Part shown: in pieces, positions 6,947-64,000 of the stretch | How the letters are laid out: the number at the start of each line of letters is the position of its first letter | Position numbering within the stretch: the first letter of the stretch is position 1 | Origin: Raja brachyura | Taxonomy: Eukaryota | Direction of reading: 5' to 3' | Assembly (NCBI GenBank): GCA_963514005.1 | Contig: OY740788.1 | Coordinates: 87,420,001 to 87,484,000, forward strand | DNA length: 64,000 nucleotides | The notes under the pieces: model-generated | Database searches by the model: none | What the model was told of the DNA's origin: nothing | Seen by the model: only the letters and a program-made list of their open reading frames with translations | Made by a program: the position numbers and the translations under genes

Positions 6947-7178
6947 CTGGCGAACTTACCTTAAGACTTCGCTCCAAGTTCGCCTCACTTTGCGCCGCGT
7001 TGCGCCACTCACCCGACCTCCGCGCGGCCCTCGCTGCCGGTTTGGTCGCGCTTGCCGCATGCAGGCGCATGCTGGTGGGAACGGCCCTGTACAAGGGGTC
7101 ACCCGACCTCCGCGCGGCCCCCGCTTCTAGTTTGATCGCGCTCATCGCATGGAGTCGGATGCTGGTAGGACAGGCCCT
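6947..7178 (-). mobile_element. Truncated Harbinger-like MITE with a duplicated terminus
   Basis: Reverse complement of the left ~130 bp of the element at 55900-56582. The terminal block (acccgacctccgcgcggccc...gctggtRggaMMggccct) occurs twice; the final copy is followed by taa. Confidence 0.7.
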
Positions 7179-17567: not shown

Positions 17568-18868
17568 AAACATAGAAACATAGAAATTAGGTGCAGGAGT
17601 AGGCCATTCGGCCCTTCGAGCCTGCACCGCCATACAATATGATCATGGCTGATCATCCAACTCAGTATCCCGTACCTGCCTTCTCTCCATACCCTCTGAT
17701 CCCCTTAGCCACAAGGGCCACATCGAACTCCCTCTTAAATATAGCCAATGAACTGGCCTCAACTACCTTCTGTGGCAGAGAGTTCCAGAGACCCACCACT
17801 CTCTGTGTGAAAAAAGTCCTTCTCATCTCGGTCCTAAAGGATTTCCCCCTTATCCTTAAGCTGTGACCCCTTGTCCTGGACCTCCCCAACATCGGGAACA
17901 ATCTTCCTGCATCTAGCCTGTCCAACCCCTTAAGAATTTTGTAAGTTTCTATAAGATCCCCTCTCAATCTCCTAAATTCTAGAGAGTATAAACCAAGTCT
18001 ATGCAGTCTTTCTTCATAAGACAGTCCTGACATCCCAGGAATCAGTCTAGTGAACCTTCTCTGCACTCCCTCTATGGCAATAATATCCTTCCTCAGATTT
18101 GGGGACCAGAACTGTACGCAATACTCCAGGTGTGGTCTCACCAAGACCCTATACAACTGAAGTAGAACCTCACTGCTCCTATACTTGGTCGCCCAATTAT
18201 AGGAAGGATGTCAACAAAATAGAGAGGGTACAGAGGAGATTTACTAGAATGTTGCCTGGGTTTCAACAGCTAAGTTACAGAGATAGGTTGAATAAGTTAG
18301 GTCTTTATTCTCTGGAGCGCAGAAGGTTAAGGGGGGACTTGATAGAGGTCTTTAAAATGATGAGAGGGATAGACAGAGTTAATGTGGACAAGCTTTTCCC
18401 TTTGAGAATAGGGAAGATTCAAACAAGAGGACATGACTTTAGAATTAAGGGACAGAGGTTTAGGGGTAACATGAGGGGGAACTTCTTTACTCAGAGAGTG
18501 GTAGCGGTGTGGAATGAGCTTCCAGTGGAAGTGGTGGCGGCAGGTTCGTTGGTATCATTTAAAAATAAATTGGATAGGCATATGGATGAGAAGGGTATGG
18601 AGGGTTATGGTATGAGTGCAGGCAGGTGGGACTAAGGGAAAAAAGTTGTTCGGCATGGACTTGAAGGGCCGAGATGGCCTGTTTCCGTGCTGTAATTGTT
18701 ATATGGTTATATGGTTATATGGTTACTCAAATCCTTTTGCTATGAAAGCTAACATACCATTTGCTTTCTTCACTGCCTGCTGCACCTGCATGCCTACTTT
18801 CAATGACTGGTGTACCATGACACCCAGGTCGCGTTGCATCTCGCCTTTTCCTAATCTGCCACCATTCA
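17568..18868 (-). mobile_element. CR1-A (minus) containing a nested CR1-B (plus, 18185-18723)
   Basis: Minus ORF 17662-18156. The host sequence breaks at ctgctcctatac| and resumes tactcaaatcc after the (ttatatgg)n tail of the insert. Confidence 0.9.
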
Positions 18869-22917: not shown

Positions 22918-24546
22918 CAGTGTCCGTCATCATTTATTTATTTGCCTCTGTGCTCAACAATTTGAGATTTGCAATAGAAAAAAATCACATGTGGTTAAAG
23001 TGCACATTGTCAGATTTTAATAAAGGCCATTTTGATACATTTTTGTTGCACCATGTTGAAATTACAACTGTGTTTATACATTGTCCCCCCATTTCAGGGC
23101 ACCATAATGTTTGGGACACATGGCTTCACAGGCGATTGTAACTGCTCAGGTGTGTTTAATTGCCTCCTTAATGCAGGTATAAGAGAGCTCTCAGCAACTA
23201 GTCTTTCCTCCAGTCTTTCCATCACCTTTGGAAACTTTTATTGCTGTTTATCAACATGAGGCCCAAAGTTGTGCCAATGATACTCAAAGAAGCCATTATG
23301 AGACTGAGAAACAAGAATAAAACTGTTAGAGACATCAGCCAAACCTCAGGCTTACCAAAACCAACTGTTTGGAACATCATTAAGAAGAAAGAGAGCACTG
23401 GTGAGCTTACTAATCCCAAAGGGACTGGCAGGCCAAGGAAGACCTCCACAGCTGATGACAGAAGAATTCTCTCTATAATAAAGAAAAATCCCCAAACACC
23501 TGTCCAACTGATCAGAAACACTCCTCCAGGAGTCAGGTGTGGATTTGTCAATGACCACTGTCCGCAGAAGACTTCATGAACAGAAATACAGAGGCCACAC
23601 TGCAAGATGCAAACCACTGGTCAGCTGCAAAAATAGGATGGCCAGGTTACAGTTTGCCAAGAACTACTTAAAAGAACAACCACAGTTCTGGAAAAAGGTC
23701 TCGTGGACAGATGAGACCAAGATTAGCATATCAGATTGATGGCAAGAGCAAAGTATGGAGGAGAGAAGGAACTGCCCAAGATCCAAAGCATACCACCGCA
23801 TCTGTGAAACACGGTGGTGGGGGTGTTATGGCCTGGGCATGTATGGCTGCTGAAGGTACTGGCTCACTTATCTTCATTGATGATACAACTGCTGATGGTA
23901 GTAGCATCATGAATTCTGAGGTGCAGAGACACATCCTATCTGCTCAAGTTCAAACAAATGCCTCAAAACTCATTGGCCGGCGGTTCATTCTACAGCAAGA
24001 CAATGATCCCAAACATACTGCTGAAGCAACAAAGGAGTTTTTCAAAGCTAAACAACGGTCAATTCTTGAGTGGCCAAGTCAATCACGCGATCTGAACCCA
24101 ATTGAGCATGCCTTTTATATGCTGAAGAGAAAACTGAAGGGGACTAGCCCCCAAAACAGGCATAGGCTAAAGATGGCTGCAATACAGGCCTGGCAGAGCA
24201 TTACCAGAGAAGACGCCCAGCAACTGGTGATGTCCATGAATCGCAGATTCAAGCAGTCATTGCATGCAAAGGATATGCAACAAAATACTAAACATGACTA
24301 CTTTCATTTACACGACATTGCTGTGTCCCAAACATTATGGTGTCCTGAACTGGGGGGACTATGTATAAACACTGCTGTAATTTCTACACAGTGAAACCAA
24401 AATGTATAAAAATGGCCTTTATTAAAATCTGGCAATGTGCACTTTAACCACATGTGATTTTTTTTCTATTGCAAATCTCAAGTTGTGGATACAGAGGCAA
24501 ATAAATAAATGATGGGTCTTTGTCCCAAACATTATGGAGTGCACTG
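22918..24546 (+). mobile_element. Tc1/mariner (DD34E, IR-DR type) DNA transposon, near full length, transposase frameshifted
   Basis: TA flanks at 22916-22917 and 24547-24548; cagtg...cactg ends; ~200-230 bp TIRs with ccataatgtttgggaca direct repeats. The transposase spans three frames: HTH and GRPRK, WTDE, VKHGGGGVMAW, QQDNDPKHT...DLNPIE (34 residues between D and E). Confidence 0.95.
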
Positions 24547-27677: not shown

Positions 27678-28815
27678 TCACTCACCAGTAACCTGCTCAT
27701 TCATGCCCAGTTTGGATTTTACCAGCACCGCTCGATTCCAGACCTTAGCATGGCCTTGGTCTAATCCTGGACTAATACAATGCATTTTGGAGGTGATGAG
27801 GGAGTGACTACCCTCAACATCAAATACATCACTTGACAAGAGCGTGGTATCAGGGAGTCCGAGTAAAACTAAAATGAGTGATCGCAACAAGAACATACGC
27901 CCGGCGGTGGGAGCCACTGCAGAGGGTTGTGCTGGTTGTTGGCCAATCCCAGCTCCAGGAAGTCCTCAGGACAGTGTCCTGGGCCTGGTTACATTTTTGT
28001 AGCGCCTCCCGCAACCTCACTAATTCCAAGGACCTTTATAGCCAGTAGTCATGTTCTGTGTTGGAACGTAGGGAGAAGCAGTGTCCAGTTTGTGATCCCA
28101 CAAACAACAGTAGGATACAAGAGTTTGTGTTTCTTGGGTGATGTTGGGCTGGGAACTGAAGACAACTCAATCTTCACTGCATGAATTCACTGGAGGGTCA
28201 ACTGAAGAACACATAACAAACAGGAGAACAGGGCTACAGGTCTTCTGTCTTCTCCTCCATTCAATCAGATCAGGGCTGACTAAACCTTGTCCTCCAGTTC
28301 CCCTTTCCTTTCACCATAACCCTCCAATGGCTCGACAGACCAGAAATCTGATCATAAATATATTAATACAACTTCTGCGTAAAAAAACTCCAGATTTACA
28401 GACCTCATAGAATAAATTCCTCCGCACTTCAGTATTAAATGACGGGAAACACCCTCACAAGCCACTTAACAAGTTTACATCTTTCAAATAGGATACAATG
28501 CCCTACCTGGTGAACTTTCTCTGAACTCCCCCCCGATGCAAATCCTAAATGAAGAAACCAAAATTGGACAGAGTACTCCAGGCATGGTTTCACCTTCCCT
28601 GCACAGTCAGGAGGAGATGCAGCCCACTCATCCCCTCAAGCCTGCTCTATCTGCTGACCTTGATTGTACCCGGGCTCCGTTATGACAAAACACAGCCAAG
28701 TGCTGTCTTGACGTCTAGAGCAGTCACTCCCAACTTGCTTCTGGAATTCAGCTCATTAGTCCAGGATTGGACCAATGCTGTGATGAGATCCGGAGCTGAA
28801 TGATGCGAGTTAAAT

Positions 28816-29405
28816 CCGTCGGGACATCAACCGCCTCGACTTCTCCACTCCCCTGTCTCACTCCAATCTCCCCCCCCCCCGAACGTACTGGCATCGACTC
28901 ACTCCGTACAACCCAGACTGGGTTATCAAACCCGCCGACAAGGGAGGTGCCGTGGTAGTCTGGCGCGTCGATCTCTACAAAGCGGAGGCCACGCGCCAAC
29001 TCTCGGACACCTCCCCCTACTTACCCCTGGACCATGACCCCACTGACGAGCACCAGGCCACCATCTCGAGCACCATAACTGACTTCATCAACTCCGGCTC
29101 CCTACCCCCCCGAGCCTCCAACCTCATCGTTTCCCAGCCCCGCACAGCCCGATTTTACCTTCTCCCCAAAATCCACAAACCCGACTGCCCCGGCAGACCC
29201 ATTGTCTCTGCCTGTTCGTGCCCCACCGAACACATCTCCACATACCCTGACTCCATCCTATCCCCCTTTGTTAAATCCCTCCCCACCTATGTTAAAATAA
29301 AAAATAAAGAGTCTGAAGAAGGGTTTCGGCCCGAAACGTCGCCTATCTCCTTCGCTCCTTAGATGCTGCTGCACCCGCTGAGTTTCTCCAGCCTTTTGTG
29401 TACCC
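28816..29405 (+). mobile_element. Penelope-like RT fragment joined to a pLTR short repeat
   Basis: KPADKGG, FYLLPKIHKPDCPGRPIVSACSCPTE; near-identical to 31974-32456. Followed by the hammerhead-containing repeat at 29311. Confidence 0.85.
29313..29340 (+). ncRNA. Minimal type-I hammerhead ribozyme motif (Penelope pLTR)
   Basis: CUGAAGA-A-GGGU(UUCG)GCCC-GAAA-CGUC: conserved core, stem II with tetraloop, palindromic ACGU minimal stem III, GUC cleavage triplet. Stem I pairing is weak. Confidence 0.6.
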
Positions 29406-31864: not shown

Positions 31865-33592
31865 TGGAGTCCTCGCCCCCCACGGATGATCCCTTGTTCC
31901 ATCTCCAACGTACCCCCTCCTCGTGGACCCCCCCTCGTGGCCCTCCGGCTTTAGAACTCTTTATACAGAACTGCCGTCGGGACATCAACCGCCTCGACTT
32001 CTCCACTCCCCTGTCTCACTCCAATCTCTCCCCCCCCCCCCCCGAACGTACTGCCATCGACTCACTCCGCAACAACCCAGACTGGGTTACCAAACCCGCC
32101 GACAAGGGAGGTGCCTTGGTAGTCTAGCGCGTCGACCTCTACAAAGCGGAGGCCACGCGCCAACTCTCGGACACCTCCTCCTACTTACCCCTGGACCATG
32201 ACCCCACTGACGAGCACCAGGCCACCATCTCGAGCACCATAACCGGCTTCATCAACTCCGGCTCCCTACCCCCCCGAGCCTCCAACCTCATCGTTCCCCA
32301 GCCCCGCACGGCCCGATTTTACCTTCTCCCCAAAATCCACAAACCCGACTGCCCCGGCAGACCCATTGTCTCTGCCTGTTCGTGCCCCACCGAACACATC
32401 TCCACATACCTTGACTCCATCCTATCCCCATTGGTTAAATCCTTCCCACCTATGTTCAAGACACCTCAGACACTCTCCGTCGGCTCCACGCATTCCATTC
32501 TCCAGGCCCCCACCCTCTCATCTTCACCATGGACGTCCAGTCATTATACACCTGCATCCCCCACCAGGATGGTCTCAAAGCCCTCCGGTTCTTCCTCGAC
32601 CAGAGGAGCAACCCATACCCGTCCACTGACACCCTCCTCCGCCTAGCGGAGTTGGTCCTTACCCTCAATAACTTCTCTTTTGACTCCGCCCATTTCCTCC
32701 AAACACAAGGCGTAACTATGGGCACACGCATGGGCCACGGCTACGCTTGCCTCTTTGTCGGGTACGTTGAATAATTCTTGTTCTCGGCGTACCAGGGCCC
32801 CACCCCCGACCTCTACCTCCGTTACATTGACGACTGCTTTCGTGTCACCTCCTGCACCCACACACAACTGACTGACTTCATCCATTTCACCACCAACTTC
32901 CATCCGGCACTCAAATACACTTGGACCATTTCCGACATTTCCCTACCATTCCTTGACCTCACCATCTCTATTGCAGGTGATACACTCCTGACCGACATCC
33001 ACTAGAAACCAACTGACTCCCACAGCTACCTGGACTACTCTTCCTCCCACCCTGCTTCCTGTAAGGACTCCATCCCCTATTCCCAATTCCTCCGTCTACG
33101 CCGCATCTGGTCCCAGGATGAGGTGTTCCACACCAGGTCATCACAAATGTCCTCGTTCTTCAGAGAACAGGGTTTCCCCTCCCCCACTATAGATGAGGCT
33201 CACACCAGGGTCTCCTCCATACCCCGCAACACTGCCCTCTCTCCCCATTCCCCCACTCACAACAAGGGCTGAGTCCCCCTGGTCCTCACCTTTCACCCCA
33301 CCAGCCGGCACATACAACACATAGTCCTCCGCCAGTTTCGCCACCTCCAACGTGACCCCTCCACTCGCCACATCTTCCCATCTCTCCCCCCGTCTGCCTT
33401 CCGCAAAGACCGCTCCCTCCGCAACTCCCTTGTCAATTCTTCCCTTCCCTCCTGCTCCACCCCTTCCCCGGGCACTTTCCCTTGCAACCGCAAGAGATGC
33501 TACACTTGTCCCTTCACCTCCCCCATCCACTCCTTTCAGGGACCCAAGCAGTCACTCCAAGTCCGATAGAGGTTCACCTGCACCTCCTCCAG
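31865..33592 (+). mobile_element. Penelope-like retroelement RT region (pseudogenised)
   Basis: KPADKGG, PKIHKPDCPGRPIVS, TMDVQSLYTCIPH, QTQGVTMGTRMG, YLRYIDD and LPFLD motifs with stops and frameshifts. Truncated just before the GIY-YIG core. Confidence 0.9.
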
Positions 33593-35600: not shown

Positions 35601-35828
35601 CAGATTTATCTTACCATGTACCACAACCCGAGTCACTGTTCTCCTTTCCCATTCTTCATATGCTCATCTCACATCACGTACCACATTTAGTTTTATCCTC
35701 TCTCTTTTCCCCATCCCCTCTTCCCCCTCACCTGTATCCACCTCTCACTAGCCATGCTTTGTCCCACCCCTGCCTCTTTTCCAGCTTTCACACCCTGCTT
35801 CAATCAGTCTAAATAAAGAACGTGTCCA

Positions 35829-36772
35829 AACATCCCCAAATTTGCAGATGACACCAAGCGGGGGGGTATAGTTAGCTGTGAGGAGGATGCTTGGAGGCTG
35901 CAGGGTGATTTGGATAGGCTGAGTGAATGGGCAGATGCATGGCAGATGCAGTATAATGTGGATAAATGTGAGGTTATCCACTTTGGTGGCAAAAACATGA
36001 GGGTAGACTATTATCTGAATGGTGGCCGATTAGGAAAAGGGGAGATGCAACGAGACCTGGGTGTCATGGTACACCAGTCATTGAAAGTAGGCATGCAGGT
36101 GCAGCAGGCAGTGAAGAAAGCAAATGGTATGTTAGCATTCATAGCGAAAGGATTTGAGTATAGGAGCAGAGAGGTTCTACTGCAGTTGTACAGGGTTTTG
36201 GTGAGGCCACACCTGGAGTATTGTGTACAGTTTTGGTCTCCAAATCTGAGGAAAGACATCCTTGCCATAGAGGGGGTACAGAGAAGATTCACCGGACTGA
36301 TTCCTGGGATGTCAGGACTTTCATATGAGGAAAGACTGGATAGACTCGGCTTGTACTCACTGGAATTTAGAAGATTGAGGGGGGATCTTATAGAAACTTA
36401 CAAAATTCTTAAGGGGTTGGATAAGCTAGATGCTGGAAGATTGTTCCCGATGTTGGGGGAGTCCAGAACAAGGGGTCACAGTCTAAGGATAAGGGGGAAT
36501 TCCTTTAGGACCGAGATGAGGAAAACATTCTTTACACAGAGAGTGGTGAGTCTCTGGAATTCTCTGCCACAGAAGGTAGTTGAGGCCAGTTCATTGGATA
36601 TATTTAAGAGGGTGTTAGATGTGGCCCTTGTGGCTAAAGGGATCAGGGGGTATGGAGAGAAGGCAGGTACGGGATACTGAGTTGGATGATTAGCCATGAT
36701 CACATTGAATGGCGGTGCAGGCTCGAAGGGCCGAATGGCCTACTCCTGCACCTATTTTTCTATGTTTCTATG
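35829..36772 (+). mobile_element. CR1-A 3' ~940 bp, open frame retained
   Basis: KFADDTK, then ORF 35910-36680 uninterrupted through the C-terminus; tttctatg tail. Confidence 0.92.
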
Positions 36773-38019
36773 TATGGAGGAGCTGCAGATGCTGACCTAA
36801 ACCGAAGACAGGCACAAAAAGCCAGAGTTACTCAGCGGGTCAGGCAGCATCTCTGGAGAAAAGGTGATGTTTTGGGTTGACACCGAAGAAGGGTCTCAAC
36901 CCGAAACGTCACCTATTCCTTTTCTCCAGAAATGCTGCCTGATCGGCTGAGTTACTCCGGCTTTTTGTGTGTCTTCAGTCTAAAGAAGGACCCCGACCTA
37001 AAATGCCATGAAAATATCCTGTACAGTTGCTGCTGACCATTTGATTTCCTGCAACACTTTGCTGTTTGCTCGAGACCTCAGCACAAGATCACCTTTCAAG
37101 CTCAAGTTCAAATGTTCAAGAGAGTTTATTGTCATGTGTCCCTGATAGGACAATGACATTCTTGCTTTGCCTCAGCACACAGAACATAGTAGGCATTTAC
37201 TGCAACCTTTCACGAGAAAATGGGGGTAGAGTACGCGTGGGTCGGCTAGGAGAGGGTCCTTCAATGTTCTCTGTTCTTTCAGCAGGCAATGGTTTTGTTA
37301 ATACTCCCTTTCTTTGCTTCCTCTTTCAGAAAAAAAACCACAGCGTTTCACACTCCTCTGTAACATTTCACCTGCTCCAGGCAAGATCATTCTCAGCTAA
37401 TTTGCAATGAAATCGCGCAAAGGGCTTCCAGTTTAGAGTGGTCGACAGCTGCCAGTGTGGAAGGTAAACAGTGGCAGAGCTGAGTGAGACACGAAAGCTA
37501 TTAGCATATTTAATTAATCCAGATCAACATAGTAATGGAAAACATCTTGTACAATGGAGCAAGCAACCCCGGCAGTCTACTGTAATCCGATGAAGCAGCT
37601 GCTTAGTTTGATACGACGGGAATTAATCCCAACCAGAGACGAGAAAGAGCCCAAAAACAGTGCGATGAGATCCACGATGAAGATAATCCAATACATGCAG
37701 ATGCTGGAAATTTGAAACAATGAACAAATGATGCTGGGAACACTAGGCAGGTCAGGCAGCATTTGTGGAGGGGGAAACAGAATTAAAGGTTCAGGTCCAG
37801 GTGCCTCAGTGGATTCGTAGAGCCCTAGAGCAAGGCAACAAGTCCTTCCTCCCAACTCATCCATGCAGGAGAGTTTCCAGCTGTTCTGACACCTTCCCTA
37901 ATGTAAAGGCACAGAGTATTCACTCCACTATGTGGGTCAATGAAGGGAAAGAGAGTAGGACCTTCAGGCAACTCTTCAAACAAAATGTCTTTAAATACAT
38001 CGCCATTAATCAAATTCTC

Positions 38020-38518: not shown

Positions 38519-39136
38519 AAGAGCAGGGAGGTTCTACTGCAGTTGTACAGGGTCTTGGTGAGGCCACACCTGGAGTATTGCGTACAGTTTTGGTCTCCTA
38601 ATCTGAGGAAAGACATTCTTGCCATAGAGGGAGTACAGAGAAGATTCACCAGACTGATTCCTGGGATGGCAGGACTTTCATATGAAGAAAGACCGGATAG
38701 ACTCGGCTTGTACTCGCTGGAATTTAGAAGATTGAGGGGGGATCTCATAGAGACTTACAAAATTCTTAAGGAGTTGGACAGGCTAGATGCTGGAAGATTG
38801 TTCCCGATGTTGGGGAACTCCAGAACAAGGGGTCACAGTTTAAGGATAAGGGGGAAGTGTTTTAGGACCGAGATGAGAAAATCATTTTTCACACAGAGAG
38901 TGGTGAGTCTGTGGAATTCTCTGCCACAGAAGATAGTTGAGGCCAGTTCGTTGGCTATATTTAAGAGGGGGTTAGATGTGGCCCTTGTGGCTAAAGGGAT
39001 CAGGGGGTATGTAGAGAAGGCAGGTACAGGATACTGAGTTGGATGATCAGCCATGATCACATTGAATGGCGGTGCAGGCTCGAAGGGCTGAATGACCTAC
39101 TCCTGCACCTATTTCCTATGATTCTATGTTTCTATG
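38519..39136 (+). mobile_element. CR1-A 3' fragment
   Basis: ORF 38543-39037 plus tail. Confidence 0.9.
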
Positions 39137-40016: not shown

Positions 40017-40539
40017 AATCTTACTAACCTGTATGCTTAGATAAAGCTGAACCAAGTACGTGTAGGTATAATTGTAATGGAACAGAAGGTAGACACAAAA
40101 TGCTGGAGTAACTCAGCGGGACAGGCAGCATCTCTGGAGAGAAGGAATGGGTGAGGTTCAGGCCGAGACCCTTCTTCAGACTGATGACCATTGGAAACCA
40201 TTAACGACCCGATGTTTCCAACGTAAGTTATGTGTTTTCCCACAAAAGGGGAACATTGGCGGCGCAAGAGTCACCTTAAGGTGGAAATGATGGTGAAAGT
40301 CAATGGGGAGAGGCATGATGCATGTCACGTGGATAATACAAATGATAGCCCGGCTGAATAAACACCATTGAAAAGGGAAGTGAAGAGAGAGAGAGAGTAT
40401 TGGAACAGAGTGACAGTTAGCATAAAAGGGAATCCAAACATTCTCTGTGGGAACATAAATAATGAGAAAGCATTAACAGAAAAGGTGGTGGCAATGAGCA
40501 ATAAAGAAGCACAGAGACAGGAGACTTGTAATGGGGAAT

Positions 40540-40807
40540 GGGCACCTGGGCACCTGGGCACCTGGGCACCTGGGCACCTGGACACCTGGGCACCTGGGCA
40601 CCTGGGCACCTGGAGACCTAGACACCTGGGCACCTGGGCACCTGGGCACCTGGGCACCTGGGCACCTGGAGACCTAGACACCTGGGCACCTGGACACCTG
40701 GGCACCTGGGCACCTGGGCACCTGGGCACCTGGGCACCTGGGCACCTGGGCACCTGGACACCTGGGCACCTGGGCACCTGGACACCTGGGCACCTGGGCA
40801 CCTGGGC
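40540..40807. repeat. 8-bp minisatellite (GGCACCTG)n, ~33 units
   Basis: Tandem ggcacctg with gacacctg and gagaccta variants. Confidence 0.97.
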
Positions 40808-42439
40808 AAGCATTAGAAATACAAGGGATCAGTGGACATGCATGGATCTCCCAAAGTGCATTTGATACAGGCAATATAAACCAAACCATACCATGCTAGA
40901 GAGGTGGGATGAACATAGAAGGAACATTACACATGGCTATGAGCTCCTAAGTGTTTTTTTGACATTAACAATAGGTGCGATAGTCATGACAATGGCAGAA
41001 TGAATATTGATAAGGAGCAGGTATGAAAAAGACTGGGTCTAGTTAGAGTGAATAAGAGGAGGATGTGGATGAGAATATAAATGGATCTCACTTTGGGAAA
41101 GGACATTGAGCTAGAATATTCAGGGAGGGGGACAACACCATTTGGAACAAATGACCATCAATAAGTAACAGTGTTTGGTGTCTTAGTTGCTTTAAAGGTA
41201 GGTCAATCCACAGGCTGTGATAGGATGCATGAGAGGATATTGCTGGAGCCCCGACAGACAGAGACTTTCAAATCCTCTCTGGCCATGGGTGAGGCGCTGG
41301 ATAATTCACGATGATGGCAAGTACATTGGAAAAGGTCAAACAGGGCAAGAAAACGTCTGCTCTACAACACTCCCTGAGGCCTTGCCATTTACTGTGAAGG
41401 ACCTGCCCTGAATTGACTTCCCTAAAATGGACCTTGTACTTCTCTGAATTAAACAGTTTGCCATTGCTCAGCCAACTTGCCCAGCTGATCAAGATCCCAT
41501 TGTAATTCTTAATAACCATCTTCAGGGTCAACAATAGGAAATATTTAGGTATCATCTGCTAACTTACTAATAATGCCTTATACATTCTCATCCAAATTGT
41601 TGATATAGTTGATAAACAGTAATGTACCCAAAACAGTATGTACCCACCACTAGCCACAGGCCTCTAATCCGAAAAACAACATTCCATCACCACCCTCTGC
41701 TTCCGACCACAAAGCCAATTATGTATCCAGTTCTCTAGCTCTCCCTGATCCCATACACTGTGATCTTCTAGAGCAGCTTGCTATGTAGACTCTTATCAAA
41801 GTCCTTGCTGAAGTCCAGATATGCCAGGTCTACCACCCTGCCTTCATTTAGCTTCTTGGTTAGTTCCTCAAAAAACGCAAACTGGTGATAGATGATCTCC
41901 CATGTACAAGACCATGCTGACCATCCTAATCAACAGCTTTCTTTCCAAATGTATGTACATCTTATCCCTCAGTATCCTCCCCATTAACTGTTGCACCACA
42001 GATGTCAGGCTTATTGATCTGTGGTTCCCAGTTTTTGTCTTTGCAGACCTTCTGAAACGGAGGCACGACATTAGTTTTCAGTCTACCATCATCTCATCCG
42101 TGTTTAATGATTCTTATATTTCGGCCAGTATTTCTTTTTCTCTAGCTTCTCACAGTTTACCTATCCCACAGCCAACAATGGACCATTGTGGGCTCCACAT
42201 TTCCTTGATTATCGTTGCTTTCTGCATAATTTCCATTCATTTGCCTTCAGTGGTGTCTATATCTCTCCATTCCACTGTCCCCTTGACTCTCTATCTGAAG
42301 ACGATTCTCAACCCGAAACGTCACCTATTCCTTTTCTCCAGAGATGCTGTCTGATCCGCTGAGTTAATCCATATTTTTGTGTCTGTCTTTGGTTTAAACC
42401 AGCATCTGCAGTTCCTCCCTACATGGGCATCCCTACAGC

Positions 42440-46552: not shown

Positions 46553-49106
46553 ATGAAAGGTGAAACACGGCAAGGAAACCTCCTGATATCCACATCCCCT
46601 CCTCCCTCTGCTGACCAATTACTGCTCATCCAGGTTGCACAACACATGGAAGAAGCACTGGGAGAGGACAGACACAGAACGCAGTCCGGCTGGGGACCAG
46701 TGTCCATCATTGAGTGGTTTCATAACATCACCATTCACCGGGCTGGCTGTGTCCTGAAGAACAGAGCTGTCGGACTGCATCTGCGGCAGGCAGCCTGTGA
46801 CCAAGAGCAAGTGTAGACTACTGGCCTCATCCTCACTGGCCTCCCTGTGACAGACGCACCTCGTCAGCTCAGCAGTGGTAGAAGTGACCGCTACACAGCT
46901 CTGGAGGAGACAGTCACAGTGGACCCCCTCCGTTGGGTCATGTGGGACTACAAGTACTCTGAATAGGACAGGTATCGTACAGATCCAACAGCGCAGAACT
47001 AGACCTCTGAGTGTAGACACAAAATGCTGGAGAAACTCAGCGGGACAGGCATCATCTCTGGAGAGAAGGAACGGGTAACGTTTCGGGTCGAGACTCTTCC
47101 TTTACCTAGGACTGCTGAGTGACTGCCCTTGAAATTAAGCCAATGTTTGATCAAGTAAAAGTAAATGTCCATTTACGTGGACTGATGTCCAAGTGAACGA
47201 ACATCAGTAAGAAAGTAGGTGTCCTGGATTGAATCATAGCCCATGCAAAGGAAGATTGTCATGGATGTTGGAGGTCCATCACCTCAGTCCCAGGACATCA
47301 CTGCAGGAGATGCATGGGGAAGAAATCTGCATTTATTAACTGGACGTAACTCCACACTGACAGCACGTAGTGCCTCTTAAATAGTTGCTCAGGGCAGTAT
47401 CCTGGCCCCAACCTTCATCAGCTGACTCATCATTGGCCATCCTTCCATCATAAGGTGGGTGTGTTCACTGATATTCCATTCCATTCACAACTTCTCAGCA
47501 AGTGAAGAAACCCCTGCCTACTGCAAGACCTAGACAACATTAATGGGCTGGTGAATGACAATTAAAGTTTGTGGTATAGAAGAGCTACCTAATGACCATC
47601 TAGAGCGAGATGGTCAGGCAGCACCTGCGGATGGAATGGACAAACACCATTTCAGGTCATGGCCCTTTGTCAGTTTGGTTTAGACCATCCTCCAAATCGT
47701 TGCCTGTCCATTTGCCTCCATAGATGCTGCCTGACCAGCTGAGTCCTACAGAACTTTATTTATTTCTCAAGACTCCAGCATCTGCAGTCTCTTGTATCTC
47801 TTGTGTTATCCAGTTGCTCAGGACAACCCAAAAAACACCCTTGCATTTCATTCGCACCTCCGTGGCAAGGGAATATTCTCTGAGATAGTAATGGTCCCAT
47901 TTCCAAAGCAACGTGACAAGACCCTCCCTGGAAGACCTGAGGAGATTGCCTTATGATAATGAGGCATTCTGCCAAGTAGACTTTACCAGTCACCTTGAGG
48001 ACCACTCTACATTACCCATTGTCTATTGTTCCCACAAGGCTCCTGCCAGCTCAACCCTTTTCCTGAGATCAGTGACCCACCATGATGATGTTTGTCTCCA
48101 TGTTCATCCCTGGGAGCTGGCTGTAGAACTGCCTGGGACGAAGCTTGGTAAGAAACACTGTGTACTTTCTCAGACCAACATGTAAATGGCTTTCCTGGAG
48201 AAAAGTAATAGGTGACGCCTGATGAAGGGTCACAACCCAAAACATCACCTACTCCTTTCCCCAGAGGTGCTGCCTGACCCGTTGAGTTACTCCAGCATTT
48301 TGTGTCAGTCTTCGGTGTGAACCAGCATTTGCAGTTCCTTCTTACACATGCAAATGGTTGCGACTTTTTCCAATGGTTACCCGGTGACACACCGGCCACC
48401 ATCAGAGATCTAAAATCAGTGAAAGGGGCATTGATTGCATCTGCGTATGGCAGTGGATGTGGGTCGATGAGATGGATGGATGGGAAGCTGGCAAGGAGCA
48501 TTCATGTTGAGTAAACAGAACTCACTGGAGCGTGGAGCACTGTGAATGATGTGCTGGTAGAAACATGTAACACTTTTTTAAAAAGTCAATAGTAATTAGG
48601 CAATTAGCGTCAAAATTCCAAGGAGACTGGGCAGGCTTTCAAAGATGTCAATAACATACCCTCCAGTGAGCTAGGATTTCCCATTAAGAAGGAAACTAAA
48701 ACCCCTGGCCCTCAAAACCTGACTCACTGCTTAGTCATCCCAACAACACAGCCCTGTATTCTGACTCCAGACTCTATTGAACGGAACAATGGACAGCATC
48801 GTCACTGCCATCAGCCACGCCGACACATGGCATTCACCTTCACATTGCAATCTCTGTGGTGTTGCAGCATTCAGCTCATCCAACACAAGGAACACTTTTC
48901 CACTTATGGAGATCCGATGTCAGCATCAAAACATTCAAGGGCAAATTAAATGAAGGCTTAAGTAGAACAGACGGTGCCAAACCTTCCCAAGGCAGGCCGA
49001 GCACAGCCTGCACACAGAGTGAGGCCAACCCTACACTGCCCTGGACAATCATCCTGCGGGTTAGACACGGGGAGAAGCTCCCCATACAACATCCTGTCCC
49101 ACACTC

Positions 49107-49314
49107 GCGGTCCCTGGAGAGGAAACACACGGTGTCCATGGGGACTCTGTGAACGCTGGTCACATTCTACGGGAGGTTGAGTGTATTATTGATAAAGTTC
49201 CTGATATTTTAATTTGATAACATTTTCTAAACTGCCATTATAGGCAGTCTCTGATCGTGTCACAACTGTGTGGTTCTGTGTGTTTTGAATAAAAGCATTT
49301 TGTATTAAAAAAAA
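49107..49314 (+). mobile_element. Tx1-clade LINE (second family) 3' fragment
   Basis: tccctggagaggaaacacacggtgtccatggggact matches ~52744-52778; gaataaaa...A8 tail abuts gggcagggat. Confidence 0.7.
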
Positions 49315-49396
49315 GGGCAGGGATAATCAGCCCCTGTTTGTGTACTTGAAGGGGCAACTCCTCACGTGTTGGCTGCATTTCAGCCCCACGTTCCTA

Positions 49397-49883
49397 ATAG
49401 AAACATAGAAACATAGAAAATAGGTGCAGGAGTAGGCCATTCGGCCCTTCGAGCCTGCACCGCCATTCAATGTGATCATGGCTGATCATCCAACTCAGTA
49501 TCCCGTACCTGCCTTCTCTCCATACCCCCTGATCCCTTTAGCCACAAGTGCCACATCTAACGCCCTCTTAAATATAGCCAATGAACTGGCCTCAACTACC
49601 TTCTGTGGCAGAGAATTCCAGAGACTCACCACTCTCTGTGTAAAGAATGTTTTCCTCATTTCGGTCCTAAAGGAATTCCCCCTTATCCTTAGACTGTGAC
49701 CCCTTGTTCTGGACTCCCCCAACATCGGGAACAATCTTCCAGCATCTAGCTTGTCCAACCCCTTAAGAATTTTGTAGGTTTCTATAAGATCCCCCCTCAA
49801 TCTTCTAAATTCCATCGAGTACAAACCGAGTCTATCCAATCTTTCCTCATATGAAAGTCCTGACATCCCAAGAATCAGTCTGG
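49397..49883 (-). mobile_element. CR1-A 3' fragment
   Basis: ORF 49495-49866 plus tail. Confidence 0.9.
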
Positions 49884-50237
49884 TAATCTTTGGTCATTCA
49901 GCACGGATGGGTCAGTGGAGGATTCTCCCTGTTGGTTTGTTCCTGGGCCTGGCCAAGATGGCCATTCACTGGTCTAGGCAGGGGGCAGTCGAGGGTTCTG
50001 CCAAGATTGAATGTCTGCCCCTCCTCTGGGCCTACATTCATGCCTACATTTCATGGATAGGGAAGATGCGGTGTCCATGGGGCCTTCTGTAAAAGGCTCG
50101 AGTGCATCATGGATAAGGATGATAACGCCGTAATTTGTTGATTGATTTATCGATGTTTGCAAATGCTGGGCAGTTTTGATCTTTCCAGTACTTTGTAATT
50201 GTGATCATGTAATAGAAGTTCCTTGTTAAGGAAAAAA
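49884..50237 (+). mobile_element. Tx1-clade LINE (second family) 3' fragment, older
   Basis: VGLFLGLAKMAIHWSR; cctgggcctggccaagatggccattc is shared with ~52634-52659; A-tail abuts gggcagagac. Confidence 0.7.
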
Positions 50238-50300
50238 GGGCAGAGACAATGTGAGTTAAACACTGAATAAGGCAGCACAGTAGCAAGCCAATAGAATTTA

Positions 50301-51352
50301 TGGGCCTGTCCCACGTGGGTGACTGCAGGAGACTATGCAGCCGCCACATTGTCGCCGCTGGTTCGCGGGTGGTTGCCGGGGATTCGCCTTCATAGTCGTG
50401 AATACCGCTCCCCGTGACGGCATTCTAGTCCACGCCAAAATTAGCGGCGGCGAGAATGTAGCCGCCTTGGAGAGGATCGAGAATCCTCGTGCCATAGGTG
50501 GGTCGCCCGGAGGCCCTAGTGGGTTGCCAACTGGTCCAAGGTTCCCGTAGGTTCCCGTGGGTTGTAGCCGGTGCTGACCGGAGAATTTCATCGGCTCATT
50601 GGGAAAAAAAACGTAAGCAGTCGTCTTCAGAACCAAGGATAACCGACCGGTAAAATGTTAAATGTCCGCCGAGCTTCACAGCCGTGTATCTCTGGCTTCT
50701 TAAACGTTGTCTCCACTCCTTCTCCCGCCTTCTCCCCCCTCTGCCCCCCCCTCCCCCTCCCCCCTCTTTTAAAGGACTTTCTGTACACTGTGCTTTCCAC
50801 CTTAATTACAGCGCCAACCTTCCTGTTCATCGCATATCACCTTGGCCTTGCACCGTGTGAATATTACTCGGACAGCGCTCCCCCACTTGCCCTGTCCCCC
50901 GCCGGCATAACGGNNNNNNNNNNNNNNNNNNNNNNNNNNNNNNNNNNNNNNNNNNNNNNNNNNNNNNNNNNNNNNNNNNNNNNNNNNNNNNNNNNNNNNN
51001 NNNNNNNNNNNNNNNNNNNNNNNNNNNNNNNNNNNNNNNNNNNNNNNNNNNNNNNNNNNNNNNNNNNNNNNNNNNNNNNNNNNNNNNNNNNNNNNNNNNN
51101 NNNNNNNNNNNNNNNNNNNNNNNNNNNNNNNNNNNNNNNNNNNNNNNNNNNNNNNNNNNNNNNNNNNNNNNNNNNNNNNNNNNNNNNNNNNNNNNNNNNN
51201 NNNNNNNNNNNNNNNNNNNNNNNNNNNNNNNNNNNNNNNNNNNNNNNNNNNNNNNNNNNNNNNNNNNNNNNACCGTTCCAGTTGTCGGTTTTTTAGGCCA
51301 CTGTCAAGTTGCCCGCAGCCGCCTGAAAAATCGCATAAGTGGGACAGGCCCA
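50301..51352. mobile_element. Harbinger-like MITE (larger variant, spans an N gap), apparently inserted in a V-SINE head
   Basis: TIR tgggcctgtcccac / gtgggacaggccca. A degenerate SINE head at ~50271-50300 continues at ~51360 (cttacagtgcctgagacccggg...) to ~51615. Confidence 0.7.
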
Positions 51353-52410
51353 TTCCAGCGCTTACAGTGCCTGAGACCCGGGTTCTATCCCGTCTACGGG
51401 TACTGTCTGTAAGGTGTTTGTACCTTATCCCCGTGACCTGCGTGGGTTTTCTTGGTTTTGTCACCAAAGACGTGCAGGTTTGTAGGTTAGTTGGCTTGGT
51501 ACAAGTGTAGAATTGTCCCTAGTGGGTGTAGGATAGTGTTGATGTGCGGGATCGCTGGTCGGCGCGGACACGGTGGGTTGTATCTCGAAACTAAACTAAA
51601 CTAAGCTAAATTAAACATGTATCACCAAGCATCTGGGTTCAAACCTGATCTCTGCTGTTGTCTGAGTGGAGTTTGCATGTTCTCCCTGCAACCTTATGGA
51701 TTTCCCCCCCTGGGTGCTTCTGTTTCCTTCAAGATCACAAAGGCATGTGGGTTGGTGGCGAGAATTGGAAACAGGTCGGGGGGGGAATCTGGGTCAGGTC
51801 GGGGGGGGGGGGGGGGGGGTTCCCCCCGCCACGGGAACCATGTAATCCCGTGCTACCTGCTCCATGGTCCGATAGTCGGCGACTAAACCGTCTCCCCCAC
51901 CTGGTTTGCCAGCTGAGGAGGGGGCTGTGGACCCCCAGCAGGACCAAAAACAACACCTGTTGAAGGGCGGATGAGCTCCTAGCGAGCCAACGGCCGTCCA
52001 CACTTCAGTAAAGTTGCGATCACTGTCGAACACGGCATTGTAGGGAATGATGATAAAGCACACACACACACACACACCAAAATTACAGGAACTGGAGGAC
52101 AGAGATATGTGGTGCGTCCGTCACCGCTCCATCGCTAATGCGTGCAACTATGATGAATGAATGAAGGAATAAGAATTGGGAGGGAGGAGGTAATTTATGG
52201 AGATGAGAAAAGAATAAAACAAGCTTAACGTTGGTTTAGTGTAAACGGGTGCTTCATGCAGTGCGGACTTGGTGGGCCGAAGGGCCTGTTTCTGTGCTTT
52301 ACCCATGCTATAAGTCTACACTGTCCCATCACGCTCTCTTGGGTCATGGTCACACAGGTTAGAGACCTGTGAAGCTCCTTCTACACAGTCCCATTACACT
52401 CCCAGGGCAG

Positions 52411-52960
52411 AGTGTCGCACATGGCTGTGGCCTGTAACAGGTATTTGAGCCGGTCCACGGACTCGTCCGCCGCCTGTCACTTCTGCGGTGAGGCAGTGAC
52501 TGTGTTCCATACATACATGCGGTGTGAGAGGTTGCAGCCCCTGTTCGAGTATCTGAAGGGGTTGCTCCACAAGTATTGGCTACATTTTAGCCCTAGGTCG
52601 GGAGGGTTGGGAGGGTCTCCCTGTCGATCTGCTCCTGGGCCTGGCCAAGATGGCCATTCGTGGGTCCAGGCATACGATAGTCGACGGCCACACCGGGGGT
52701 TGGCTGCCTGCCCCTTTTCCGGGCCTACGTCCGTGCCCCCGTGTCCCTGGAACGGGAACACGCGGTGTCCACGGGGACTTTGGAGGCCTCCCGTGAACAC
52801 TGGTCTCCGTGGTAGGACGAGTGTATTATTGATAACGTTGGCGATATATTAATTTGATGACTGTTTGTTTGTAAACTCAATATAGGTAGCCTTTGATCAT
52901 GTTAATTTGATTATGCTTGTTTTTATTTTCTGAATAAAAATATTTGTACATTAAAAAAAA
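52411..52960 (+). mobile_element. Tx1-clade LINE (second family) 3' fragment with CCHC zinc knuckle
   Basis: ACHFCGEAVTVFHTYMRCERLQPLF; aataaa plus A8 tail; agggcag duplicated at 52404-52410 and 52960-52966. Confidence 0.8.
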
Positions 52961-52976
52961 GGGCAGGGACAATATA

Positions 52977-53987
52977 TAGCAATGTTACAACTTGTCAAGT
53001 CTGCAATTTATCCCATCAGATAAAGCATAAAAATAAGTTTAATTTGACACCTAATTCACTTTCATATCTTCAGTATTAAAAAAGTTATGGCCATTTTCAT
53101 ACTCGGAAATTAGCATCTTGTTCCCTATTGCTTTTCCATTGACTTAACACAAAAGCTGTGATCAAGGACAGTCAAAAGCCCATAACTTTCTTAAAAATTA
53201 AGAGAACTGAATGAAAATTTCAGTTATTATAAATTGAAGCATTCTGAAACAAATATGAAACAATCTTACTTGGATGGCCTGAAATTAAAGCATATAATTA
53301 GTTAGTTACCTAATTGTAGCTAATTACAAAATTCAATTACCAGATCTAAACATCTATCCATTTCTTAAGAAAAGATTAACATTTTTAAAAAGCCAAAGTG
53401 CCCAAAGAACATTCACACAAGAATTCACAATATAACATGATTTTTAAATCACATTGTCATGAATTTATAGGCCAAATTGAAGGAATTTAGTTTTTAATTC
53501 CTGTGAGATTTTGTGGAACGCGATCGTTTGGAACGTTGCGGTTGCGGTGAATTTAAACCCCATATCGGCAGGAAAAACACTGCCAGTTCGTATGGGGCCT
53601 AAATCACCTTTTCGCAACATGAAATTTTGATTAAAGGCATCCTAAGAAGCAAGTTTATATGAAAAAATAAACGGTGTACCTTGCCTTGTCCCCTACGTGA
53701 GATCTGTCCCGTTGTCGGTGTTGACGGCATTAGAAGATGATTTTAATTTTACTACTGCATTATCTAAATTATTACTAAATTATCCAGCGCTAATTTTAAT
53801 AAACTTAATATAATGGCAGTCAAAGCGATTTTTCTTCAGCAACTAAACAGCCTGTTCAAAATCGATTTGAATAGTCTGAAGAAAAAACGCATTTTAAACC
53901 CGCCCCCCTCTCAAAGGCACCAAAGTCGCGCACATGGCCAGTGACAGAACTGCAGCGTCGCTGAAGGCAAGTTTTGTAACATACCTA
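52977..53987 (-). mobile_element. Second copy of the TAG...CTA non-autonomous DNA transposon
   Basis: Reverse complement of 10676-11736. Ends tagcaatgttacaa / ttttgtaacataccta; flanks caatata / ccatata (7 bp, 1 mismatch). Confidence 0.85.
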
Positions 53988-54638
53988 CCATATAGGTTAG
54001 TGACAGAGTGAAGCTCCCGCTGCACTGTGCCATCACACACTCCTGGAGCAGGTACAGCACAGGTTAGACACAGGGTGAATCTCAGGCATGACGTTGCCCA
54101 TGTTGCGGTTGGAAGGGGAGCCTGTGTTCCCAATGGCTGTAATTAACATTGTGAGTATTGCCTACCTCAGTCAATGTGGACACGTTGCCCAAGCTTGCAG
54201 TTAAAGGCTGGCTGGCTGCCTCCCCCAGTACCACCTGGTAACAAGAAAGTGGTGGTTCCCCTACCTATATGGGCCAGTTGGGACATTAGTGAATTTGTGA
54301 GGGGAGCAGGTGGGCGGCTACCTTATCAGCTGGGGATTAATGTCTTCAGGTCAATCAACAACAATGGAGTTTCTAATCATCGAGGAAGGGTGTAGGGCGA
54401 GTGGTACATAGCATGAAACACCAACATCACACAGGCAGGGAAACTTGTAAACATAGTGAATGCTTAAAATCTGAAGGCCACTGTCGAGGGTAGCAATGGG
54501 GGCAATTTCTATTGCAGTGTTCAGAAGGATCTGAAGGGATAGAATTTGCAGAGAGGGGCAGGTCCACTGTTTATTTTCCGTATCTGTTTCCACCCCTAGC
54601 CAGTCTCAACTTCCCCCTCTCAAGCTCCCACCGACCCA

Positions 54639-55033: not shown

Positions 55034-55899
55034 CCACTCCGCCTGGTTTCACCCTGTCACCCACCAGGAACTACCTTACCTCACCTCCTTATCCTGGTTA
55101 TGCCACCTCTATGTTCCCAGTCTTGATGCAGGGTCACAATCAGAAGCACTAACCACCACTCTGCCTCCAATGATGCTGTTTGACTCACTGAGTTCTTCCA
55201 GGAGCTTGTTTTTTTGTAAATGGAGAAAGGAACTAATTGGATTACACACAACCAGTATAAACACAAGGAGCAAAATGGTTTCCTTCCATCGTGGAAAGGG
55301 CGATTCATGGTGGACGATGGTTTGGTGGAGGGGGGGGGGGAGGCAATGATGTGTTTAGGGGCTCCAGTGTGCTATTGTAGGGAAGGGATGGCAGGGTCAA
55401 AGGAGGGTTCATCTTACTAAAGCCCACCCCTCCATCCCCTCCATCAACAGCTTGGACATGGTTGAAGTGTAAGATTGGGTATCAACGTCCCAGCTAAGGC
55501 AAGGTTTAGACCTGAAATGTCAACCATCCCTGTGCCCCTTCAGATGCTGCCTGTCCTGCTCAGTTCCCCCAGAAGCCTACTTTTGCTCCAGATTCCAGTA
55601 TTTGCACTCTTTTATCTCCGTTATAATGTTACAGGGGACATCATGGCACCACCCTAACCGACCTACCGACTAATGAAAGGTCGAGATAACGTGGATGAGG
55701 AAGGGTGTTTCCAGTTGTGGGAGAGTCTAGGACCAGAGGGCACAGCCTCAGGATAAAAGGACACACCTTTAGAATGACGATGAGGAGGAATTTCTTTAAC
55801 CATAGGGTGGGGAATTGTGAGAATCAAAGCCACAGGTGGCTGTGGCGGCCAAGTCATTGGTATGTTTAAAGCAGAGATTGCTAGATTCTGGATTAGTAA

Positions 55900-56582
55900 A
55901 GGGCCTGTCCCACCAGCATGCGACTCCATGCGGTGAGCGCGACCAAACCGGCAGCGGGGGCTGCGCAGAGGTCGGGTGAGTGGCGCGATGTGGCGCGAAG
56001 TTGGAGCGAAGTCCATGGTAAGTTCGCAAGGACAGAGAGGGTCACACAGAGAGGGTCACGGAGGCACACACACAGAGAGGGTCACGGAGGCACACAGAGA
56101 GGGACACGGAGGCACACAGAGAGGGACACGGAGGCACACAGAGAGGGTCACGGAGGCACACACAGAGAGGGTCACGGAGGCACACAGAGAGGGTCACGGA
56201 GGCACACACACACAGAGGGTCACGGAGGCACACAGAGAGGGTCACGGAGGCTCAGAGAGAGGGTCACGGAGGCACACGTATAGAGGGCCACGGAGGCACA
56301 CAGAGAGGGTCACAGAGGCACATATAGAGAGGGCCACGGAGGCACGACGTGAGGCGGTGCATAATGCATTGAGGCGGCTGCGGGCCGAAAGGCCGTTGCC
56401 GCGCGGAATTTTTGAACACGGGTCAGTTTTTCGGAGCCCCGCGCGATGTTGGGACGAACTCCGCACAACTCCATATGGCTCCGGCGATCGAAGTGGGACC
56501 AGCTCCGCGACGCCGGACGGCTCAAGCGACCACGTTAGGTCGCGCTCACCGCATGGAGTCGCATGCTGGTGGGACAGGCCCT
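55900..56582. mobile_element. PIF/Harbinger-like MITE, perfect 45-bp TIR, TAA TSD, internal 22-24 bp minisatellite
   Basis: agggcctgtcccaccagcatgcgactccatgcggtgagcgcgacc at the left, with its exact reverse complement at the right. taa at 55897-55899 and 56583-56585; removing the element restores the host CR1 text attagtaagggtgtc. (gagagggtcacggaggcacaca)n at 56031-56345. Confidence 0.9.
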
Positions 56583-56850
56583 TAAGGGTGTCAAAGACTT
56601 TGGGGAGGAGGCAGTGTTGGGTCTACCTGGTTGAGAATAGAGTTGAGAGTGAATGATAGTTCAGGCATGATTGAATGCCAGAGTAGATTTGATGGCCGGT
56701 CGGCTTAATTCTCCTCCTGTTATTTACAAAATTCATAAGCAGAATGAGAAAAGATCTGGACATCGATGTGTACTTGATTAGTTAGGGGGAACAAAAGTTA
56801 TATAAGGAAACGCAAATGGGGTTGAGAGGGAAAAATAGATCAGCCATCAG

Positions 56851-62033: not shown

Positions 62034-64000
62034 GATTAAATGAGAACTTACCAGTTTGAAGTTTGATCCTTATTTTATGAGGAGTTACGATGAGGGATTT
62101 CGTGAAGACCCTGCCAGCACGCATGCGTGACATTCTTCAAAGCAGCGGTGTGGAATCACAGATAACAACAATGACTGAAGATAGTAAGATTAAGAGACTC
62201 TAATATACCTGTTGACCTTATGATAGAGGGTTGGGAGCGGAGGGCACGAAATCCCTCATCGTAACTCCTCATAAAATAAGGATCAAACTTCAAACCGGTA
62301 AGTTCTCGTTTAATCTTACTATTTTACTTCGGAGTCTCGTGAGTGACTTTGTGAAGATTTCAAAGCTCTGTGATTCCATGCCCTGGACCATGTCCATGCT
62401 CCCACACTGCCGTAATTACTGATGGAGGAAGTATGTTAACATATTTCAGACTTGAACAAGCTGAAAAATAATAACGTATTTATTAATACAAAACAAAAAC
62501 CCTTGAATTCCGGGACAAACGTTTAGGGAACAGCATTTAAAACTGACTCCGCAAATGTTGCGGGAGCAGCCACAGGTTTGGTATAAAAACGCTGAAATGT
62601 AGTTTCACTGGCCCAGCCCGCTGTTGTGAGGACATGATCCATGGGTACCTCCACGGTCCTCGCCGCTGATGCAGATGCAGCCCTGGTAGAATGAGATTTT
62701 AAAATGTTAGTGTCTATACCTGCTGCACCCAATACCACCCTGAGCCACCTGGAGATAGTCTGCACCGTCACCCTGTGATGTGGGTTTCCATGGCTGATAA
62801 ACAGTCCCGTCCATATTCCTGATGGTGTGTGTGACATTGATATAATGTCGGATATGGGTGGCTATACAGAATCGTATGTCAACGGGGTATGCTAGGAATT
62901 CCAATTTCAGTCCTGTAGTTCCAGGCCTGTGTTGTTTAAGTAACTCATCTATAAAGAAAGTCACTTTATTGGGGGTCAAGACCATTCTATCCAGTTTTAG
63001 TTTCTGTAGTGTCTGGACCCGTTGTGCTGTGGTTAGTGCCATTAACATCACCACTTTGAAGGTGAGTTTGTCCAGTGGTAAATCCGTCATAGGCGACCAG
63101 CACCTGAGTAGGGTCAACACCACCCCGATATCCCAGGTAATATTATATCGTGGTCGGGGAGGGATGGAATTGAATAGACCCCTCATGAGTTTGGATACCA
63201 GCTGGTGAGATCCCACTCCAATGTTGAGATAGGATGACAGTGCTCTCCTGGCACTCTTTATGGCACTGTAACTGAGGGCCTCATCAAAATGAAGGCCCGC
63301 GAGGAATTCCAGCACATTGGTGATCGTAGCAGAGTTGTAGGTGGTCTTGGTCCATTACAGAAGGCCTCCCACTTCCTTATGTGGGTGAGGTACTGCTTCC
63401 TTGTGGACTCTCTGCATGATGCTATAATGATGTCCATGGTTCTTGTAGACAGCCCGAATTCCAGCAATGGCCTCTTCAGAACCTGCAAGCCACCAGGTTC
63501 AGATTACCATGGCACGGATGGTTTTCCCCTGTTATGGGATTGGTCACCAAATTCGGGCATTTGGTAACCTGTACCCATGGTTCTTTCATCAAGTTGAGGG
63601 CCACCGGGTACCATGGTTGTGTGGGCCAGTCGGGTATTATCAGTAAACCTGATGCAGAATCTGGTTGTATTTTCTGCAATACCCGACTGATGAGGCAGAA
63701 TGGGGGAAATGCATAGAAAAACCATTTCCCCCAATGTAGCGAGAACGCGTCCATCGCCACTGCCCCAGGATCTGGTTCTCAAGAGACATATGTTGGTATC
63801 AACCTCGACGCAAAGAGGTCGATATCTGGTGTTCCATTTTTGGCTATAATTTTAGCAAATATTTGGGGGTTCAACATCCACTCGATGTTGTCATTAAATA
63901 CTCGTGACCTGGTGTCCACCACTGTATTGAGCTTACCCGGAAGGTATGTAGCTGATATCCAAATATTTCTTTCAATACACCAGAGCCAAATTAAATTTGC
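62034..64000 (-). mobile_element. DIRS1-like tyrosine-recombinase retrotransposon, 3' part (runs off the window edge)
   Basis: RNase H end (IWISATYLPGKLNTVVDTRSR) at ~63900-64000; methyltransferase-like domain (DIDLFASR...DAFSLHW...YAFPPF...PDWPTQPWYP); SAM-like N-domain (STRKQYLTHIRKW); YR domain (TAQRVQ...HSTRAASASAA...AGW..TFQRFY), frameshifted; terminal inverted/complementary repeats. Confidence 0.93.
62523..63488 (-). pseudogene. DIRS tyrosine recombinase, split across three frames
   Basis: ORFs 63258-63488, 62707-63315 and 62523-62837 together carry the catalytic R, HxxR, W and Y residues. Confidence 0.88.

Follow-up and report, generated by a model that had tools for sequence, protein, structure and literature searches.

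A Tx1L-branch retrotransposon family of the ray Raja brachyura that probably inserts at one position of a dispersed ~67-bp tandem repeat

Introduction

Retrotransposons of the Tx1 clade, which lack long terminal repeats (LTRs), are known to target repeats precisely, and in the case described here only the target looks new. The accessible parts of PMC4494074 give as Tx1 targets Tx1D, U2, (TC)n, (TTC)n, Mariner, LTR and Harbinger elements, satellites (named as a target class in the legend to Fig. 3), U5 and 5S, and describe tandem insertions that sandwich a duplication for Tx1 families. Tx1 repeats are recorded in the whale shark and Callorhinchus, with no target stated in the part of PMC8455134 at hand, and bamboo-shark Y satellites of 43–108 bp are mentioned, in the available portion without sequences, in bioRxiv 10.1101/2025.03.13.642935. 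The accessible sections of that preprint and of PMC3747384, PMC5381603 and PMC13100897 contain nothing on a ~67-bp target. Here we analyzed a 64,000-nucleotide stretch of the Raja brachyura genome (assembly GCA_963514005.1, contig OY740788.1, forward strand, 87,420,001 to 87,484,000; hereafter the window, with positions counted from its first letter). It holds three copies, A, B and C, of one Tx1 family inside an old tandem array at 48985-54085. Very probably, this high-copy non-LTR retrotransposon of the Tx1L branch uses target-primed reverse transcription to enter a dispersed ~67-bp tandem repeat, at a fixed position and with a fixed orientation.

Results

A preliminary description of the window, made from its letters, had reported three poly(A) tails abutting the same motif, and all three junctions were located where it placed them. 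Copy A ends in A8 (49307-49314) followed by GGGCAGGGATAAT, copy B in A6 (50232-50237) followed by GGGCAGAGACAAT, and copy C in A8 (52953-52960) followed by GGGCAGGGACAAT. In each of the three long interspersed element (LINE) copies, the poly(A) meets the identical base of a repeat unit in the identical orientation (CCCA/GGGCAG, the slash marking the junction). At the 3′ end, copies A and C have the poly(A) signal AATAAA and copy B has AATAGA; 6–8 A follow in each, and then GGGCAG(G/A)GA(C/T)AAT. Searching both strands for the 13-mer from the flank of copy C with at most one mismatch returned three positions in the window, exactly the three junctions. Poly(A) signals with poly(A) tracts number six in the window, of which three are followed by the motif and three are unrelated, and no further fragments of the element were found in the window beyond these copies. 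By hand arithmetic, the chance that two more independent insertions would fall on the same base and strand, with ~6 units available, is near (6/126,000)^2, an overstatement, as the presence of this pattern was the reason for choosing the window.

The three copies are all 5′-truncated at different points, all shorter than 600 bp, and share 80% (C and A), 72% (C and B) and 67% (B and A) identity. Copy A (49107-49314, plus strand), whose coordinates stood as first given, comprises the end of open reading frame 2 (ORF2), the 3′ untranslated region (UTR), AATAAA and A8; it has no 5′ duplication and about 3 bp of the target are gone. The interval first given for copy B, 49884-50237, required correction: its 3′ part, with the A6 tail, is 49888-50237, and an overlooked 5′ part lies at 49328-49398, both on the plus strand. 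Copy B is split by a minus-strand retroelement (49399-49883), with TAAT duplicated and the reading frame resuming across the break. Between A and B lie 13 bp of target (49315-49327, plus strand) that serve both as the right flank of A and as the 5′ duplication of B, matching 50238-50250 at 11/13 positions; since this duplication bounds B, the two copies form a tandem pair sandwiching a duplication. The 3′ duplication of B and the continuation of the unit occupy 50238-50271 (plus strand), with 11/21 identity beyond nucleotide 13. The divergence of B suggests that it is older than A.

Copy C (52409-52960, plus strand) contains the CCHC zinc-knuckle end of ORF2, marked by a deletion, frameshifts and a stop, followed by the 3′ UTR, AATAAA and A8. 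Its target duplication, described earlier as the 7-bp agggcag, spans 6 bp, with a seventh base belonging to it only if an ambiguous A is counted. The last two bases of the duplication, AG (52409-52410), are also element sequence and so constitute a 2-bp microhomology; the truncation point is fixed because other copies of the family extend upstream of 52409 in coding sequence. The 3′ duplication and unit continuation (52961-52976, plus strand) are interrupted by a 1,011-bp non-autonomous DNA transposon (52977-53987) inserted 16 bp downstream of the copy. With this transposon removed, the right flank of C matches the intact unit in register at 26/34 positions, and at 17/21 past nucleotide 13, a level equaled at 3 of 125,812 window positions. 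The possibility raised at the outset that the motif is the element's own 3′ end is unlikely, since the unit sequence runs on in register through the flanks.

One old array of a ~61–67-bp unit, interrupted by nested insertions, spans 48985-54085. The earlier assignment of the sequence after C to the unit was correct, apart from the intervening DNA transposon, and its two loci merge into one array because the anchor motif recurs once the inserts are removed in silico, at spacings of 64, 61, 65 and 67 bp. Plain autocorrelation of the rebuilt array gave nothing clear (best peak 0.35) because the units carry indels. The left part of the array (48985-49106, plus strand) holds degenerate units 1–2 and stops 3 nt before the insertion base; 1.4 units follow at 52314-52410 (plus strand), terminating in the 5′ duplication GGGCAG of copy C (52405-52410), and the remainder of the interrupted unit and the array end lie at 53988-54085 (plus strand). 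Each part includes one empty site (48990; 52341, which is degenerate; 54046), and none of these three matches the 13-mer of the filled sites, the mismatches numbering from 4 through 6 to 8, a divergence that fits sequence specificity. Unit sequence totals 380 bp, or 0.6% of the window, and a profile of unit pieces, whose seven good matches are its own training pieces, found no window match below E 1.8 outside 48991-54085. Neither inverted nor direct terminal repeats were detected at the array ends; in an inverted-repeat test of the 300-bp flanks, 248 of 300 shuffles scored equally well, and the array is old, its true ends possibly lost. Folding of the unit was unremarkable (z −0.08 to 0.29). 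Repeats of such a kind are probably common in shark assemblies.

Two kinds of target used by other Tx1 elements were considered for this array and rejected. A search of 48500-54600 against Rfam with cmscan gave a single chance match (E 0.77) and no family matching the unit, with none of the U2, 5S or tRNA-gene arrays targeted by elements of the Keno, Mutsu and Dewa type. A microsatellite of the Kibi/Koshi type does not apply either, as the flanks are the ~67-bp unit and Tandem Repeats Finder called no array at the poly(A)/unit junctions.

Contigs of four public sequencing runs, from four organisms and four studies, were aligned to 52270-54130 at 80% likeness. All four contained the Tx1 family, represented by many paralogous contigs. 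In one run, X23, contigs were nearly identical to the locus, indicating the same or a close species. Among the 12 of 111 between-letter rows listed, four involve the element, two of them internal and two joining unit to element via CCAGG(G), with entry points into the element near 52616 and 52529. These X23 joints have truncation points absent from the window and depths of 132 and 223, like single-locus contigs. Taken with the window copies, the left junctions lie at about −3, +2, +6, +7/8 and +13 relative to the site, and three 5′ junctions show 2–3 bp of microhomology. No 3′ junction was among the loose ends listed (24 of 3,316). At base 54053, G replaces T in most of the depth in all four runs (762/800, 53/79, 299/470 and 63/92), indicating that the unit most commonly has the form found after poly(A), GCAGGGACA. 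Beyond these runs, a metagenome scan for other copies gave one chance match only (L001, a bacterial gene of 71% GC), viral scans gave 0 matches and 0/120 confirmed candidates, and prokaryote genomes gave 0/76 confirmed candidates and, in a second scan, 0 matches. In 120 of 159 related proteins, the region immediately preceding the Tx1 match was searched for the translated unit, and nothing rose above noise.

The window copies show the Tx1-clade traits of a poly(A) tail, 5′ truncation, and target duplication or truncation. The translation of copy C corresponds to a CCHC-type ORF2 C-terminus; it is 63% identical to the related protein P0003, whose zf-RVT match (E 1.5e-5) falls slightly short of the curated cut-off, and 41% identical over 144 columns to the C-terminus of Xenopus Tx1L ORF2 (YTX2_XENLA, P0167). 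The window peptide alone had no relevant match in Pfam. The sources of the named protein fragments in this group are three elasmobranchs (horn shark, whale shark and sawfish), sturgeon, sea turtles and alligator. Four proteins (P0004, P0005, P0048 and P0156), each with an 18,092-bp longest contig, tile Tx1L ORF2 residues 624-1285 and were taken as pieces of one element. The reverse transcriptase (RT) piece, P0048, is 53% identical to Xenopus Tx1L ORF2 and to turtle proteins over 88% of its length, versus at most 46% for teleost elements at similar coverage. In a quick RT tree of 34 chosen rows, rooted at the midpoint and built with no L1 outgroup, P0048 and P0165, the latter from a 17,977-bp contig, grouped with Xenopus Tx1L and five turtle rows (Shimodaira–Hasegawa-like approximate likelihood-ratio support, SH-aLRT, of 100), while two alligator proteins fell outside the Tx1L clade. 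In a preliminary C-terminal tree without a Tx1L row, comprising copy C and the 65 of 160 proteins with enough overlap, copy C lay beside sturgeon and sea-turtle elements. These comparisons support the proposed Tx1-clade identity and, through the RT of the nearest family, appear to narrow it to the Tx1L branch.

No full-length member of the family was found among the related proteins; more distant relatives carry Exo_endo_phos. One protein of Caretta caretta, P0170, represents a cluster of full-length Tx1L-branch ORF2 with 403 members in sea turtles. Pieces of the group also occur in horn shark zinc-finger and sawfish dynein gene models, and two alligator models bearing names of host genes likewise match it; all of these (P0072, P0094, P0016 and P0162) are probably annotation artefacts.

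All local copies are dead, and the old array that holds them has since been riddled with insertions of other elements. The sequence inserted into copy B (49399-49883, minus strand) is the 3′ end of an abundant retroelement, presumably of CR1/L2 type. About eight close paralogues (e.g. 36292-36773, 38649-39135 and 17568-18048), with 3′ ends 89–97% identical, mark it as young and abundant; these ends have an 8-bp repeat tail, and Pfam assigned no family to the paralogous ORF, a remnant of which lies at 35817-36680. A single unit is interrupted at 50272-52313 by unrelated inserts, namely pieces that we take to be related to short interspersed elements (SINEs) and a miniature inverted-repeat transposable element (MITE) with terminal inverted repeats (about 50301-51353, with an assembly gap inside). 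The MITE family, with inverted ends of the GGGCCTGTCCCAC type, is also present at 55899-56583 and 7009-7178; one copy splits a SINE-like element and another encloses a 22/24-bp tandem array. The DNA transposon at 52977-53987 has TAG...CTA ends and a minus-strand paralogue at 10676-11736. The 7-bp target duplications of this ~1-kb family, matching at 6/7 and 7/7 positions, are of uncommon length, and the family is very abundant in all four public runs.

Elsewhere in the window, a Tc1-type transposase remnant lies at 23672-24394 (DDE_3, E 9e-9). Two related RT-like remnants at 28814-29362 and 32128-32646, the first without a Pfam match, have what we take to be a Penelope-like look. An 8-bp tandem array of TGGGCACC occupies 40539-40808 in about 34 copies, and a minus-strand open frame of 215 amino acids at 62707-63354, without a match in Pfam, presumably resembles the tyrosine-recombinase region of a DIRS-type element.

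Discussion

When its first nick is specific, target-primed reverse transcription leaves a fixed 3′ junction together with 5′ ends and duplications that vary, and with short microhomologies. The junctions at this locus, fixed at 3′, variable at 5′ and with microhomology, point to sequence-specific target-primed reverse transcription as the most likely mechanism. By analogy with Tx1L, an endonuclease of the apurinic/apyrimidinic endonuclease (APE) type would nick the bottom strand opposite CCCA/GGGCAG, with the ambiguous A leaving 1 nt of uncertainty on either side. The poly(A) RNA would then prime at the nick, and the second-strand cut would be loose, or variable in position. The A–B tandem pair could have arisen in either insertion order; either way, what the endonuclease needs would be the downstream half on its own, or the upstream unit together with no more than 13 bases of downstream sequence, predicting a short recognition site. 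Such a site would be in line with the Tx1L endonuclease, which recognizes roughly 10 bp according to the accessible part of PMC1919474.

The earlier proposal that the family targets a repeat is thus supported by 3/3 local copies and two further 5′ junctions in public contigs. For comparison, the available portion of PMC4494074 calls a family target-specific when more than 20% of its flanks are of one sequence type. Several observations weigh against this reading. The on-target flanks, three window copies and two X23 joints, are not an unbiased genome-wide sample, and the three local copies represent two target sites only. The right flank of B past the 13-bp duplication is only weakly unit-like, at a level (11/21) reached by about 1% of window positions, and the degeneracy of the empty sites may be decay later than the insertions. 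The window holds the ORF2 C-terminus only, and the nearest relatives found start inside the RT, without an endonuclease domain. RT placement is by the proxy P0048, which shares the length of its European Nucleotide Archive (ENA) contig with proteins 61% identical to copy C.

It is unlikely, though worth weighing, that the family has a weak preference or local hot spot and mostly inserts elsewhere, the array and the two joints being a selected minority. The window was chosen because the pattern was visible, and off-target copies are invisible to the contig comparison since joints reveal only flanks inside 52270-54130. The family also seems very abundant, with up to 111 contigs at one position, and in the accessible text of PMC4494074 the on-target share of copies is only 23% for the crocodilian SINEU-1 and 13% for SINEU-2. 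However, all three copies in 63 kb share one base and none lies elsewhere in the window. We regard it as quite improbable that the element RNA bears the GGGCAGGGACAAT motif past the poly(A), so that a read-through extension anneals to the target and overwrites it. The filled-site 13-mers do end in AAT (2/2 sites), where the empty sites 48990 and 54046 (2/3) end in AGC; yet the independent filled sites number only two, the unit register persists well past 13 nt, the same 13-mer stands at the 5′ side of B as an ordinary duplication, and GCAGGGACA is also read in other unit copies.

The local duplication that the preliminary description named as a possible refutation would imply that the copies descend from a single insertion, multiplied as the array was amplified or through local duplication and later trimmed by deletions. 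Every copy does sit inside one 5-kb tandem array, but this origin has been largely refuted by the distinct duplication lengths and is barely credible: the five different 5′ ends, three in the window and two in contig joints, have a junction each, the duplication of B abuts its truncated end exactly, and A and B, although adjacent, are only 67% identical within an overall range of 67–80%.

Fixed-position insertion into the repeat, which we favor over these alternatives, also invites a broader idea to which we assign little likelihood. The 67-bp repeat and the Tx1L-branch family could be a self-renewing pair across sharks and rays, with read-through transcripts carrying downstream units past the poly(A). 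If so, the element would both need and spread the repeat, which would explain the dispersal of a minisatellite without visible transposon ends.

Our findings extend the sequence-specific APE-type retrotransposons, within the branch of Tx1L, by an apparently new target and probably by a new group of hosts, and point to an apparently uncatalogued dispersed repeat while leaving the known mechanism unchanged. No description of the ~67-bp repeat, or of a Tx1 element aimed at it, was found in a literature search that lay outside Repbase, Dfam and subscription journals, where an entry is quite possible. The ray, frog and turtle relatives form a natural series on the change of endonuclease specificity, in which the sea-turtle cluster of P0170 is a natural comparison for target choice. 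For site-specific gene insertion, a GC-rich target recognized through a short sequence holds some interest.

Among described systems, Keno (U2), Kibi/Koshi ((TC)n and (TTC)n) and the satellite-targeting Tx1 families have in common with the ray family the sequence specificity of the Tx1 clade. Crocodilian Tx1-Mar and SINEU-3, as presented in the accessible sections of PMC4494074, likewise have a preferred site in an abundant old repeat, with tandem insertions, duplications and target truncations; unlike the ray family, they target Mariner-N4_AMi, have an unrelated duplication sequence and belong to a group that clusters with Keno. Tx1L of Xenopus laevis resembles the ray family in RT branch, as judged from the nearest family, and in using a single site in a repeated sequence (accessible part of PMC1919474), whereas its target is the piggyBac-type transposon Tx1D (accessible part of PMC4494074) and that of the ray family is a ~67-bp tandem unit with no terminal repeats detected.

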